Part shown: positions 15,001-21,000 of the stretch, piece by piece
Layout: each line of letters starts with the position of its first letter
How positions within the stretch are numbered: position 1 is the first letter of the stretch
Assembly: GCF_003790525.1 (NCBI RefSeq)
Contig: NZ_CP033635.1
From: Escherichia coli
Lineage (GTDB): Bacteria; Pseudomonadota; Gammaproteobacteria; Enterobacterales; Enterobacteriaceae
Strand: one strand, 5' to 3'
Length of the DNA stretch: 64,000 nucleotides
Position numbers: made by a program

Positions 15001-18000
15001 AATGGTTAAGAATAAAACATGAGCTGGTGATTATCAGGACAGGTTGCTTGTATATGAAGATAACAAAGGCGGCATTTATTTTTGCGCTGTCAGTGTGGAG
15101 TGTTGCTGTGATATGTCTTTTATTATTTGTACTGATTGTTCTGGGATAGCCATAGTGAAATAAAAAGCTGTCTGAATTAAATTATTTTGCACACATATTT
15201 TAATTCTGCACTGAATTCAGAATGGGTAATCAGTGACCGTCCAGGCGGTCACCGAACTCGATAATAAAGCGGCTCATTGCCATTCGCCAGTCCTTCAACG
15301 GCATCGTCCATTTCTGGGACGCAGACTGGATTGCCAGCCACACCACTTTTTTCACCGAGTCGTCTGTCGGGAACACTTTACGCTTTTTGATCGCATGGCG
15401 GATCACGCTGTTTAGCGACTCGATGGCATTCGTCGTATAGATCACTTTGCGGATGTCCGTTGGATAAGCGAAGAACGTGGCAAGATTCGGCCAGTTAGCC
15501 TGCCAGCTTCGGCTTATCTGAGGATAGCGACTGTCCCAGGCCGCAGCGAACGCTTCCAGTGCCTGCTGACCTGCCTCTTCCGTGGGAGCCTGATAAATCG
15601 CTTTCAGGTCGCGAGTGACGGCTTTGTAGTCCTTCCATGACACGAAGCGCAGGCTGTTGCGCACCATATGCACGATGCATAACTGGATGCGGGCCTTCGG
15701 ATATACTGTGTTGATGGCATCCGGGAAGCCTTTCAGGCCATCCACACAGGCGATGAGGATATCGTTCAGACCGCGGTTTTTCAGTTCAGTCAGCACATTG
15801 AGCCAGAACTTCGCCCCTTCATTTTCGGCCAGCCACATACCCAGCAGTTCCTTCTGACCTTCGATATTGATGCCCAGTGCCAGGAACACCGATTTGTTGA
15901 TGACGCGACTGTCCTGCCGAACTTTCAGGACGATACAGTCAAGATAAACAATGGGGTAAACAGCATCCAGTGGTCTGTTTTGCCATTCTACAACCTGCTC
16001 CATCACGGCATCGGTGACCTTTGATATCAGTGCCGGTGAAACATCTGCGTCATACAGTTCTTTGAACGCAGTAGCTATCTCACGGGTGGTCATCCCTTTG
16101 GCATACAACGAGAGGATCTGGTTATCCATCCCGGTAATACGGGTCTGATTTTTCTTTACCAGTTGTGGTTCGAAGGTACCGTCACGATCGCGCGGAGTAC
16201 GCAGTTCCAGTGGACCGTCGCCTGTGATAACGGTCTTTGTGGAATAACCGTTGCGGGAGTTAGCTCCTGGTCTGGACTGATTTTTCTCATACCCAAGATG
16301 GTGTGTCATCTCTGCATTGAGAGCGGCTTCAACGCTGAGCTTTTTCAGCAGCCGATCAAACTGACTGAGGTCTTCAGGGGTTTTGAGGTTTTTGGCCAGT
16401 TCGTTAGCCAGAGCCTGTAACTGTTTTTCGTCCATAAATTAACCTTCATTTGATGCTGGATTGAACATATCAAAATCAGGCAATTACACAAATCTATGTA
16501 CAGGCTCAAACAGGTTAAGTCAGCAGAATATCACGGTTAGCACGATGGCTGTCATTCGGCCGATGAACAGTTGCTTAAGACAGGATTATCATTCCCTTCC
16601 ACCAGATTGGCTTTTTTCCCTTTTGTGTACAGTTTATATGAGTATCTTTTATTGATGGCTTCGTAATTGGCTCCGGAGGCCATTTTCATAAGCTGCATAG
16701 GTATCATCTCATCCATCTGATTAATCACTGCATATGAGTTCCCAGCAGTGGTGTTGATATAGACCACCTCCATTGTCTTATTTCCATTACAGACATAAGC
16801 TGTTTTTGAGATTTCTTTTGTGGCAGCGGAGGATACCATACTGCTGCTAACAAGAATGAGTGCAAGGACGGGAGAAGAGTATTTTTTCATAATAACTCCT
16901 TCTGTAGGTTAAAAAAACAGGTGTTTGATCAGAATTATATTAATAATTCATTCATCAGAAAAAAAGGTTTTTGTTATAGCAATAATAATGAGCACAATTG
17001 CTTGTGAAACTGGTGCCATTTTACGGTTGCTTAGGAGTGCTGAAACTGTGCCTGTTAGGGCACAGCTGGTGTGGTGGTCTCAGTACGGAACAATTTGAAA
17101 ACCAGAACATCACTTAGGCTTGTGTCCACATTACATGGGGTAGGATCAGTATTCCTCTATCAGGGGTAACTCGACCAGGCTGGCTGAGCTCTCGTTTTAC
17201 TGCGAGTATCTATGCCCATTCAGCCAGTGTCAGCGCGAGAGTGTTAAATTCCGAGCCATTATCCATGCGCAGCATGACCGGATAACCATGATTTAGCCCC
17301 TGCCGAGCTAATCGGGTACTGCATAGCACTCTCAATATGGAATAAGCGATAATTATCGCTTATTCCCAGCAAAATATCATGCCTCATCGGTGCTTTACGA
17401 GGCGATCGCTGCGATAAAGCGTGTCGTTATCTGCTGCGGACGAGTGATTGCCCCCCCAACCACCACGGTATGAGCGCCTAATGTCAGGCAACGTGCGGCG
17501 CACTCCGGGGTGTCGACATTCCCTTCCGCCACGACCGGAACGCTGACCGCTTTCAGGACCTCACGTAAGAATCCACAGTCATTTTCCGCCAGCACATGCC
17601 TGGCAGTTTCTGCGGTATAGCCGTAGAGCGTAGTGCCCACACAGTCAAAACCCAGACGTTCAGCTGTCACTGCCTCTTCTACTGTTGCTATATCTGCCAT
17701 CAGAAGTATGGACGGGTAGCGAGCGCGGATCTGCGTGACCAGTTCTTCCAGCGTCTGACCACCAGGGCGCGGGCGCGCAGTAGCATCCAGGGCAATAATT
17801 TCCGGCTCAACGGTCATCAGCTCATCCACTTCCCGGAGAGTGGCCGTGATAAACACCTCACTGCCAGGGTAATCGCGTTTGATAATCCCTATCATCGGAA
17901 GGGAGACAATCTCTTTGATAGCACTAATATCCGCCACGCTGTTGGCACGGATACCTGCAGCACCACCTTGTGCTGCCGCCAGCGCCATACGTGACATAAT

Positions 18001-21000
18001 AAACGGACTATGTAGAGGCTCATTTTCCAGAGCCTGACAGGAGACGATTAATTTACCTTTCAGGGAATCCAGTACAGTTTTCATTACGATAAAATCTCTT
18101 CGACTTCGTTTTTAATGATGGTGACATGAGGGCCATAAATCACCTGAACGCCGTTGCCGCGAATAATCACGCCACGCGCTCCGGCCACTTTCAGCGCAGC
18201 TTCATCTACCTTACTGCTCTCTTTAACCGTCACGCGCAGGCGCGTGGCGCAACAGTCCACCTCTTCCAGATTCTCTTTGCCTCCCAGCCCGGCAATGACT
18301 GCCGCTGCGCGTTCACTCTGAGGCTGGCCGGATTCAACCCGGGTTACGTTCTCACGCCCCGGCGTCAGCCAGCCAAAGCGGTTAATCAAATAGCGGAAAG
18401 TAAAGTAGTAAAGGAAGAACCACGGTATTCCCACTATGGGGACATACATCCAGTTTGTTTTAGCTTCCCCCTGCAACACGCCGAAGAGAAGGAAATCGAT
18501 AAGCCCGCCCGAAAAGGTTTGCCCAATAGTGATATGTAAAATATGGGCGACCATAAACGCCAGACCATCGAAGAAGGCGTGAATTACGTATAATACGGGC
18601 GCGACAAACAGGAAGGAGAACTCAACAGGCTCAGTGATTCCCGTCAGGAAAGAGGTCAGGGCTGCTGACAAAAGTAGTCCGGCGACAACCTTTCTATTCT
18701 CCGGCTTTGCAGTATGGTACATTGCCAGACATGCGCCAAGCAGGCCAAACATCATGGTGATAAAGCGCCCGGACATAAAGCGAGCGGTACCCGCGTAGAA
18801 CTGCTGCGTATTCGGATCGGCAAGTTGGGCAAAGAAAATCCGCTGCGTACCTTCAACCAACTGGCCGTTGACGATTTCACTGCCGCCCAGCGCCGTCGTC
18901 CAGAACGGCAAATAAAAGATATGGTGTAAACCCAGTGGACCAAGCATACGCAGGATGAAGCCGTACAACAGCGTCCCCAGATAGCCCGTCGCATCCACCA
19001 GGTCGCCCAGTCCAAAAATGAGTTTCTGGAAATGCGGCCACACCACCGTCATAACCGCACCCACTACTATCGCGGCAAGGGAGCTGATAATGGGTACAAA
19101 ACGAGAACCACTAAAAAAACCGAGAAACTGAGGTAGTGAGACTTTATTGAAACGGCTATGTAAAGTGCAGGTGACGAGACCAATCACCACCCCACCAAAC
19201 ACACCAGTTTCCAGTGTCTGAATACCAAGCGTCATCCCCTGGCCAACTGAAGCGGGGTTCTTGTGCGCCAGCGTTCCGTTGAGCGTTAATAAGGCGTTGA
19301 TGGTGGCATTCATCACCAGAAACGCCAGCAATGACGCAAGCCCGGCAGTGCCTTTATCCGATTTCGCAGCCCCACGGCGACGCCGACTGCAAAGAGTACC
19401 GACAGGTTGGCAAACACAATAGAACCTGCGCTGGTCATGATTGTGAATATTGCCTGCAACCAGTCGGCATCTAAAAACGGATAAGCCGTCAACGTGTTTG
19501 GATTTGACAACGCGCCACCAATCCCTAATAACAGCCCTGCTGCGGGCAATACCGCAATCGGCAGCATGAAGGATTTTCCGAACCGCTGCGCTTTTTCAAA
19601 CCATCCCCCCGATGAAGCGCCGCTAAACATTTGCATCATTTTATCATCTCCTCGATTTTTGATGAAAATTTTTACTATAATTATTCTTATAAATAAAAAT
19701 CACCATCAAAATCTAAGAAGTCGATCATACTTTTTTAAAATGTCTGGCATCAATCCCCTCCTTTCCGTCACACTATCAACAGATAAACGCATTAAGGATT
19801 TTACATGTCAGAAAATGAAAACCTGCTGCTGAGATTGCGCCAGAGCGTTGATGGATATAGCCGAACACAACAGAAGCTGGGAGAGTTTGTACTTAGCGAT
19901 CCGGCAAAAGTTGTCTACCTGACGATTACCGAACTTGCGCGTGAAAGCGGCACCAGCGAGGCTAGCGTCACACGTCTGTGCCGAACGCTTGGGTGTAAGG
20001 GCTATAACGAATTCAAAATGGCGCTGGCACTCGATCTCCGACAAGTACAGTTTGTAGAGCACGGCGGTGATGAGATTGACAATGTGGTCAATGAATCCGT
20101 GCAAGCAATACAGGACACAGCAAAATTACTCGACAGAACCTTGCTGGAAGCAGCCGCGCTTGCACTGCATCAGGCTCAGTCAGTGCAGATTTATGGCGTA
20201 GCAGCCAGTGCCATTCTGGGGGAGTATTTACATTATAAACTCCTGCGTCTGGGGAAACCCGCACAATTGTTCAGCGATATGCATCGTGCTGCCATGAACG
20301 CCACAACACTTAGTAAAAACACGTTCGTGGTGGCGATTTCCAGTTCTGGATCCACGCGCGATCTGCTGCATGTCGTAAAACTAGCGCGTAAGCAAGGTGT
20401 GCGTGTACTGGCGCTGAGTAATACACCGCGCAGTCCGTTAGCTTCGCTGAGTGATATTCAACTGGTCGCGGCCAAACCGGAAGGACCCTTGAGTGCCGGC
20501 GCGCTGACTGCCAAAGTGGGAGTGATGCTGTTGGTAGAGCTACTCACCACATCGCTGATTGCGCTGGATGACCAGTACAGCGAGGTGAGCCAGAAAACAG
20601 CCAGCGCGACCCTACCGCTACTGCTTTAAAGACATAAAAAACCGCCGAAGCGCTGGGTGCTCCCCATGAATCAGTGATAATAAACCAACATCATATTCTG
20701 GTAGGTTCTGGCGAGGTGATTAAAAACGGTGCTCAGCACCGTTCGTTTTAAAATTAGCGAGGAGTATCGTAAGATGCTCTTCCCCCTACTTCAGAAAATC
20801 CTTCACATCCAGTAGAATAAACTCGTTGTCATCCGCCATATTAGGCCAGCGGCTGGAGGAAAACGGGAAGTTATTATCGTTGCCTACGATGATGTGGTTA
20901 GTGTCAACCACATCCACGTTCTCGATGGTGAAGAACGGGAAGGTCAGCACACCGTCGTTCAGCGGCTTGCGTGCCAGCTTGTTCGGATCCTGAATCTTCA

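Follow-up and report, generated by a model that had tools for sequence, protein, structure and literature searches.

In Listeria monocytogenes, the lmo2795-nanE operon encodes an RpiR regulator, the phosphotransferase system (PTS) proteins EIIA and EIIBC, and NanE; growth on N-acetylmannosamine (ManNAc) needs NanE, and the PTS of the operon is dispensable for it (PMC10667646). The regulator of that operon is an activator (PMC10667646). In Streptococcus pneumoniae, nan operon I contains the nanE-nanP pair (SP1685-SP1684), in which an EIIA-less EIIBC of the glucose family adjoins nanE. It stands under an RpiR-type NanR that binds ManNAc-6-P, and around it extends a large sialic-acid regulon that includes ABC transporters, a lyase and a kinase; the phenotype of the PTS mutant concerned glucosamine, not ManNAc. 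In Vibrio vulnificus, the genes under NanR control form a sialic-acid cluster that includes a TRAP transporter, NanA and NanK. The MurP-MurQ-MurR system of E. coli combines an EIIA-less EIIBC, an enzyme that converts the phosphosugar, and an RpiR/MurR repressor that senses the phosphorylated product.

The window analysed here, a 64,000-nt stretch of Escherichia coli contig NZ_CP033635.1, carries a module of three genes. Like the Listeria operon, it unites NanE with a PTS permease and a regulator of the RpiR family in one locus, but it has no EIIA, whereas the Listeria operon encodes EIIA as a separate protein and, in addition, a ROK protein, a HAD hydrolase and an oxidoreductase. The placement of an EIIA-less glucose-family permease next to nanE matches the pneumococcal pair. 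Compared with the V. vulnificus nan cluster, the module is without lyase or kinase and has a PTS permease instead. The logic is also that of the E. coli MurNAc system, with a NanE epimerase in place of the MurQ etherase. The literature on E. coli BEN2908, the tkt1-island and IMT5155 deals with other PTS loci or with the surrounding island, and does not describe the triad.

Genes and control region of the module

An earlier, sequence-only reading had placed EIICB, NanE-like and RpiR-type genes between 17395 and 20629, and open reading frames (ORFs) and profile models bore out both the identities and the bounds. The features are as follows.

17309..20652, no strand: whole three-gene module, 3.35 kb, defined by the extent of homology to a Citrobacter chromosomal module
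17395..18084, minus strand: nanE-like gene, ManNAc-6-P 2-epimerase (PRK01130, Pfam NanE), 229 aa, intact
18084..19639, minus strand: gene for a glucose-family PTS permease, EIICB, without an EIIA domain; disrupted (518 aa after repair)
19640..19804, no strand: control region between the divergent genes, containing a promoter-like site for the EIICB-nanE operon
19657..19711, no strand: imperfect palindrome, 18-nt arms, 19-nt spacer, 83% complementarity, overlapping the promoter-like site
19805..20629, plus strand: RpiR-family regulator, NanR-like, 274 aa, intact (Pfam HTH_6 6-78, SIS 121-248)

The nanE product scored 316.1 bits against NCBIfam PRK01130 (cut-off 189) and 233.8 bits against Pfam PF04131 (cut-off 27), and is 62% identical to NanE from Staphylococcus aureus (SaNanE, 1Y0E/6VVA). 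Residues Q11, R40, K63, D124, E180 and R208 of SaNanE are conserved as Q17, R46, K69, D131, E187 and R215, and the residue equivalent to Y149 is likewise conserved. The signatures x-P-x-I-G-I-x-K-basic and V-G-[SG]-A-x-T-R are present as LPMIGIIKR and VGGAITR. The protein is thus predicted to be a bona fide ManNAc-6-P epimerase, with all catalytic residues intact. The start of nanE overlaps the stop of the EIICB gene (TAATG).

The closest solved relative of the regulator is V. vulnificus NanR, crystallised with ManNAc-6-P (4IVN; E 1.4e-68, residues 3-273 against 3-276, 44% identity over 271 columns). The two proteins align over their full length, with HTH_6 and SIS domains in both. This alignment shows conservation of the phosphate-binding stretch SSSGST, which is general to the family.

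With its missing base restored, the permease contains PTS_EIIC (PF02378) at residues 21-359 (profile positions 1-319 of 319, 297.9 bits) and PTS_EIIB (PF00367) at 447-479, with a CATRLR motif at 464 and GITE at 334; Pfam and motif analysis found no EIIA domain in it. Its best solved relative is the E. coli glucose EIICB, PtsG (PDB 8QSR, 9HNP; 363 bits, residues 14-516), with which it shares the EIIC-EIIB architecture, the fold family, the phospho-cysteine motif and the GITE motif. PtsG is, however, a distant paralogue: scored as fragments, the window permease stays under the curated PtsG, GlcB, MalX and NagE cut-offs, and its genomic context is unlike that of PtsG.

Between the divergent genes, the minus strand holds two sigma-70-like matches, at 19753-19724 and 19709-19680. 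The scanned region held four consensus matches against a shuffled mean of 3.5, which is no excess, so the promoter is assigned by position and conservation. The control region has 96% column identity with three Citrobacter loci, in which the palindrome arms (TGATGAnAATTTT) are also conserved. We regard this palindrome as a candidate operator for the regulator.

Sugar substrate and distribution

In the model that we favour, the module was horizontally acquired, is self-contained and would serve a mannosamine-type amino sugar, most likely ManNAc. EIICB would import and phosphorylate the sugar and, being without EIIA, would presumably rely on the general EIIA-Glc (Crr) as phosphate donor. NanE, whose translation is coupled to that of the permease, would convert ManNAc-6-P to GlcNAc-6-P, which would then enter the NagA/NagB pathway. 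The divergent NanR-like regulator would bind the promoter palindrome and respond to ManNAc-6-P.

The locus had been read from sequence as a ManNAc or MurNAc-type unit. The first half of that proposal agrees with the NanE residues and with the NanR-like regulator, at 44% identity. The MurNAc half was rejected: the module has no MurQ etherase and model scores are too low, the MurP model matching only the EIIB domain of the permease (36.7 bits, cut-off 516) and the MurR model giving the regulator 83.6 bits (cut-off 408). A wider form of the objection holds that the module is either a MurP/MurQ/MurR-like unit or an ordinary glucose/maltose PTS. The regulator does fall within the MurR/RpiR family, the PGAP annotation of the permease reads "maltose/glucose-specific PTS transporter subunit IIC", and glucose-type and maltose-type IIBC models fit it best, the two fragments scoring 93.3 and 471.2 bits against the 591.8 cut-off of TIGR02002 and lower with other models. 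The glucosamine phenotype of the pneumococcal nanE-linked EIIBC points the same way. The permease gene is nevertheless coupled to nanE, the closest solved relative of the regulator is a ManNAc-6-P sensor, and the three genes are kept together as a unit, which leaves this wider form very improbable.

We infer a ManNAc-type role from these features, and three observations count against it: the permease fragments reach no substrate-specific model cut-off, the comparable pneumococcal permease was assigned to glucosamine, and Listeria grows on ManNAc without the PTS of its operon.

In blastn, positions 4986-8333 of Citrobacter sequence L025 aligned to window positions 20652-17309 with 89.3% identity. 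Over the three-gene stretch the identity is 89.4%, and the missing base is the only indel. In three Citrobacter genomes the triad lies between eno and a radical-SAM gene. We see an even chance that the triad is an uncharacterised, dedicated PTS module of Enterobacteriaceae for ManNAc (or a related N-acyl-mannosamine), that its native place is in the core chromosome of Citrobacter, with eno on one side and a queE-like gene on the other, and that ExPEC/APEC-type islands have brought it into ~9% of complete E. coli genomes, the window copy being freshly inactivated or mis-sequenced. In its intact form the module is a coherent, conserved candidate ManNAc PTS shared by Citrobacter and by extraintestinal and avian pathogenic E. 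coli; if this is true, these strains would have a ManNAc scavenging route independent of ManXYZ.

One base missing from the EIICB gene

The EIICB gene (minus strand, 19639→18084) is broken into ORFs of 108 aa (19639..19313) and 415 aa (19331..18084), which overlap by 19 nt in different frames. Both match the same 502-position PTS IIBC model, TIGR02002, at positions 5-84 and 95-500, and together they cover positions 1-73 and 83-319 of Pfam PTS_EIIC. The elements of the split gene are listed below.

19313..19639, minus strand: frame-A fragment, in which 91 native residues span about two transmembrane segments; PTS_EIIC positions 1-73 only
18084..19331, minus strand: frame-B fragment, the remaining EIIC plus EIIB (Pfam PTS_EIIC 83-319 and PTS_EIIB)
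19366..19367: missing-base site, one C of CC on the plus strand; CTGGCG→CTGCG on the coding strand, codon 92

The intact reference was the ortholog from E. coli GF4, a 1557-nt gene encoding 518 aa (WP_000983423.1). Over the 3,235-nt locus, the window differs from GF4 at two places only: position 18340 holds an SNP, and one base is absent at 19366/19367, where the plus strand reads TTTCG-CAGCC in the window and TTTCGCCAGCC in GF4. Alignments to GF4, to Citrobacter and to two short-read contigs of the same clone (L004 and L005) all placed the single gap at this position; all of these sequences have a continuous frame, and the window is one base short. The proposal that EIICB was split by a 1-nt deletion is thereby confirmed by ORFs, profile matches and alignment. 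It had been put near 19330, which is correct for the ORF overlap; the lesion itself lies 35 nt upstream in the gene. The window copy, lacking a continuous frame, is a pseudogene as written. Its frame-A product keeps 91 native amino acids, after which 17 residues are read out of frame up to a stop. Because the protein is truncated after about two transmembrane segments, the permease gene as written is a null allele. The codon-92 deletion may also reduce nanE expression by polarity.

Phase variation was ruled out because the site is a GG doublet and not a repeat tract. Two routes could in principle let the split gene still make a working transporter. In the first, the ribosome would slip by -1 at A_AAG, 15 nt past the deletion, restoring the frame with four residues changed. 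The frame-A codons here are ATA AAG GCA; they include A_AAG, a motif prone to slippage in E. coli, and a lysine tRNA slipping onto AAA would continue natively (GGC ACT GCC...). In the second, translation would reinitiate at the overlapping UGAUG, where the TGA stop of frame A meets an in-frame ATG of frame B (19313-19315, TGATG), and the two fragments would then assemble. Reinitiation would, however, drop residues 92-109, part of a hydrophobic EIIC segment, and no convincing ribosome-binding site was found in the sequence for the frame-B fragment. Moreover, the two-frame layout is kept nowhere: one frame runs through the gene in Citrobacter, in the same-clone contigs and in all 448 E. coli genomes, and the split is therefore not a programmed frameshift. 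Any expression by either route would be low and accidental, and we hold a functional split transporter to be highly unlikely.

Mutation or sequencing error, and the neighbouring lesions

The deletion is private to this sequence. It was found in none of the 448 complete E. coli genomes that have the surrounding 60-mer stretch, all of which match it with one gap. Contigs L004 (10,142 bp) and L005 (7,405 bp) come from independent short-read data, L004 from an NCBI draft assembly and L005 as a Logan contig seen in seven samples. Both align to the window with 0 mismatches, the missing base being the sole difference. They also carry the same rare R434 allele as the window and share with it the IS junction 16545/16546, which GF4 lacks. 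An exact look-up of the frameshift-specific products (three alternative starts for the N-terminal piece, four for the C-terminal piece) gave no record in the public assemblies searched.

These observations suit two accounts. In the first, a horizontally acquired ManNAc-type module has suffered a very recent, strain-specific loss-of-function mutation in its permease gene, a reading to which we assign an even chance. In the second, the base was lost in sequencing, base-calling or assembly, and the real strain has an intact EIICB and a fully operational module; we put this at slightly under even. The second account draws on the fact that every same-clone short-read contig has the base and is otherwise identical across 10.1 kb and 7.4 kb, on the absence of the deletion from all the complete genomes, and on the lack of any record of the frameshift-specific fragments. 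An indel without SNPs as the sole difference over 10 kb is a pattern that assembly errors also give, and the surroundings of the site are G+C-rich (GTGGGGCTGGCG). In addition, nanE and the regulator gene are unaffected relative to GF4, so that no secondary decay accompanies the deletion, and restoring the base yields a 518-aa protein identical to one already in public data.

Against an error stands the quality of the remaining sequence: a comparison of ~47 kb with LH50-c, L014, L009/L011 and SMS-3-5, its nearest relatives, shows no other single-base indel, and the assembly error rate is therefore low. Three apparent gaps relative to LH50-c at 34078-34080 were not true indels; they arose where the alignment ends at an IS insertion site. 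Platform-specific indel errors usually fall in long homopolymers or Dam/Dcm motifs, and the GG doublet at the deletion site is neither. On balance, a genuine mutation and an assembly error are indistinguishable here, each having about half the weight; we read the deletion as probably real, and an assembly or base-calling omission is a nearly equally likely alternative. One-base frameshifts are commonplace in accessory sugar transporters, and this one may not even be biological; the EIICB gene needs read-level verification before gene-decay or pan-genome work treats it as a pseudogene.

The split gene had also been grouped with lesions in the DsbD/ScsB-like and IS66 tnpC genes and in an IS2 orfB remnant as a sign of ongoing gene decay in the region, with sequencing errors as the stated alternative. 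The argument for decay proved weak in comparison with other genomes: the neighbouring lesions recur in many independent assemblies and were thus inherited with the island. They are scars of the island, and therefore not signs of decay in this strain. What interrupts IS66 tnpC is an in-frame stop rather than a frameshift. In the IS3-family element at 26696-27909, orfA and orfB (108 and 296 aa) have the normal arrangement, which in related copies is a programmed frameshift. We also observed that the core end of the window is 100% identical to phylogroup-F strains such as SMS-3-5 and 2D, neither of which shares the island architecture.

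The EIICB lesion

The locus belongs to a module of 3.35 kb (window 17309-20652, bounds from Citrobacter homology) with the following features.

17395-18084, minus strand: nanE-like gene
18084-19639, minus strand: EIICB permease gene, split
19657-19711: palindrome with 18-nt arms, over a promoter-like site in the 165-bp divergent intergenic region
19805-20629, plus strand: RpiR-type regulator gene

The EIICB gene was split on the minus strand into ORFs of 108 aa (19639..19313) and 415 aa (19331..18084), which share 19 nt in different frames. The two pieces matched consecutive parts of TIGR02002, the PTS IIBC model of 502 positions (positions 5-84 and 95-500), and of Pfam PTS_EIIC (1-73 and 83-319), after which comes PTS_EIIB. 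In the E. coli comparison strain GF4, the intact EIICB CDS is 1,557 nt long and encodes 518 aa (WP_000983423.1). Alignment of the locus with GF4 revealed two differences in all, a SNP at 18340 and a one-base gap at 19366/19367, where the plus strand reads TTTCG-CAGCC in the window and TTTCGCCAGCC in GF4. On the coding strand, CTGGCG is changed to CTGCG at codon 92, and the frameshifted product comprises 91 native residues and 17 out-of-frame residues before a stop. As written, the gene encodes a truncated EIICB of about two transmembrane segments, and its remainder is untranslated. The ORF layout, the model matches and the gap agree with the sequence-only reading that a single-base deletion splits the gene. 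Its position near 19330 must be corrected, as the lesion lies 35 nt upstream and 19330 marks only the ORF overlap.

Two arrangements within 19313-19350 (minus strand) are coincidental. Just past the deletion, a -1 slip at an A_AAG motif would restore the native frame, and the stop of the first frame overlaps an in-frame ATG of the second (TGATG); neither is kept as a two-frame gene in relatives.

Distribution and origin of the deletion

The 3,235-nt locus was present in 481 of 5,426 complete E. coli genomes (megablast), with the best matches covering 3,236 nt, i.e. the query plus one base. A 60-nt probe centred on the missing base found no exact copy of the deletion allele among 448 matched complete genomes, all of which aligned at 98.4% with one gap. 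Exact look-ups of seven possible frameshift-specific products returned none on public record. Against the Citrobacter module (89.4% DNA identity), the missing base was likewise the sole indel.

With the base restored, the 518-aa EIICB differs from the common allele by one residue (R434 instead of Q) and is identical to a public protein (P0002) encoded by two contig entries only. The first, L004, is a 10,142-bp contig of the draft NCBI assembly GCA_034460245.1; the second, L005, is a 7,405-bp Logan contig (SRR25608274) found in 7 sequencing samples. Aligned with window 16510-26650 and 16479-23882, respectively, each matched without a mismatch and with one gap only, at the identical base. Both contigs reach 36-67 nt inside an IS256-family element at 15253-16545 (401-aa transposase ORF 15230..16435; related-strain copies annotated IS1414). 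This element sits between a sigma-factor-like gene and a c-type lysozyme inhibitor gene, in place of 40 bp found in GF4. Since GF4 is without that insertion, L004 and L005 have the same insertion junction as the window, a clone marker common to the same-clone draft contigs. The two contigs are independent data from the window's own clone, and EIICB is intact there.

The base is present in every same-clone dataset, the indel is the sole difference over 10 kb with zero SNPs, and the locus shows no secondary decay, as would be expected if the base had been lost in sequencing or assembly. Nevertheless, the window assembly otherwise appears accurate, with no further single-base indel over about 47 kb aligned to the closest sequences available: 7 SNPs at 29828-41723 vs LH50-c, 2 SNPs at 23922-45508 vs L014, 1-2 SNPs at 41517-52896 vs L009/L011, and identity at 53000-64000 vs SMS-3-5. 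Moreover, the site is a GG doublet, neither a long homopolymer nor a methylation motif. We place error and real mutation at close to even odds; if real, the deletion is extremely recent. Either way the event is ordinary: an accessory sugar-utilisation module of a known kind has either acquired a private one-base frameshift or been recorded with an error.

The intact module and its proposed route

The same triad occurs in the core chromosome of three Citrobacter genomes, with eno on one side and a radical-SAM (queE-like) gene on the other. The E. coli copies are located in islands rich in IS elements, with a lysozyme-inhibitor gene and phytase-like and ugpB-like genes close by. Conservation with Citrobacter is 96% in the divergent intergenic region, whose palindrome is a candidate operator. 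The EIICB stop and the nanE start overlap (TAATG).

NanE scored 316 bits against a curated NCBIfam cut-off of 189 and shares 62% identity with S. aureus NanE. Both signature motifs are present, as are Q11, R40, K63, D124, E180 and R208 (S. aureus numbering) and Tyr149, which contacts the acetamide group. The regulator combines HTH_6 and SIS domains; its nearest solved relative, at 44% identity over the full length, is 4IVN, the V. vulnificus NanR crystallised with ManNAc-6-P. The permease, of the glucose family, consists of EIIC and EIIB, carries the motifs GITE and CATRLR, and lacks an EIIA domain. PtsG, MalX and MurP depend on EIIA-Glc (Crr), and by analogy this permease would need it as well.

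In the proposed route, EIICB would import and phosphorylate the sugar, NanE would epimerise ManNAc-6-P to GlcNAc-6-P for the NagA/NagB pathway, and the NanR-like regulator would sense ManNAc-6-P. From the NanE and NanR evidence, ManNAc-6-P can with good confidence be proposed as the intermediate. Which sugar is transported is less certain, because the permease reached none of the substrate-specific model cut-offs, the analogous pneumococcal EIIBC gave a glucosamine phenotype, and growth of Listeria on ManNAc required NanE of the lmo2795-nanE operon while the operon's PTS was dispensable (PMC10667646). A MurNAc-type locus, the other option in the sequence-only reading, was ruled out, as MurQ is absent and neither the MurP nor the MurR model comes near its cut-off. 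Judged from sequence, the intact module would be a coherent candidate ManNAc-type PTS, common to Citrobacter and E. coli. The frameshift may exert polarity on the downstream nanE. The phenotypic cost of EIICB loss is probably small, because cells would keep ManXYZ and the chromosomal nan operon for ManNAc.

Other lesions and island structure

26696-27909: IS3-family element, normal orfA/orfB layout (108 + 296 aa)
33798-35560, minus strand: DsbD/ScsB-like pseudogene, 502-aa ORF at 34000..35508
35818-37422, minus strand: IS66 tnpC, in-frame stop at 36463-36465, no frameshift
41734..42716: disrupted IS2 orfB remnant, identical 250-aa call in other assemblies

Ongoing gene decay had been suggested for the region, with a frameshift in tnpC where we found the in-frame stop. 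The cited lesions recur in other assemblies and the IS3-family layout is normal, which does not support such decay. The public assembly collection contained the exact 502-aa ORF sequence in 77 blocks, and in LH50-c the gene is an annotated pseudogene, additionally interrupted by an IS3-family insertion at the site corresponding to window 34067-34080. Many independent E. coli assemblies have tnpC called with the same 319 + 182 aa split, and near-identical IS3-family copies elsewhere are annotated with a programmed frameshift for orfA/orfB. The DsbD/ScsB-like, tnpC and orfB lesions are scars inherited with a mosaic island that resembles PAI I of APEC IMT5155; the EIICB lesion was the sole private one found.

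A complete DctPQM-type TRAP transporter operon (29962-32800, minus strand) lies in the same island, ~10 kb from the NanE module; its binding protein matched generic DctP models only, with nothing pointing to sialic acid or ManNAc. Beside the IS3-family element end, a 77-bp stretch (26577-26653) is missing from the 4.1-Mb contig L014, which is collinear elsewhere, and present in L004 up to that contig's end (window 26650). No tRNA genes were found in the window.

The integrase-bearing island (integrase ORF 51517..52710, minus strand) meets lptG at 52886-52896 (context 41517-54047). The same island end adjoins glnH-dps-rhtA-ompX in seven other assemblies, and in SMS-3-5 and 2D the genes after lptG are yjgR-idn-ahr-tRNA-Leu. 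The switch point sits in a short palindromic repeat (CCTCCCCAGAGGGGCGAGGGG) found at both parental loci, which suggests a chromosomal rearrangement via small-repeat recombination, or an assembly join. Positions 1-10000 form an integrative-element-like backbone with GTPase, DUF932, antirestriction and inovirus Gp2-family genes (related-genome annotation); at only 96-97.5% identity to its best E. coli matches, this part diverges more than the remaining window.
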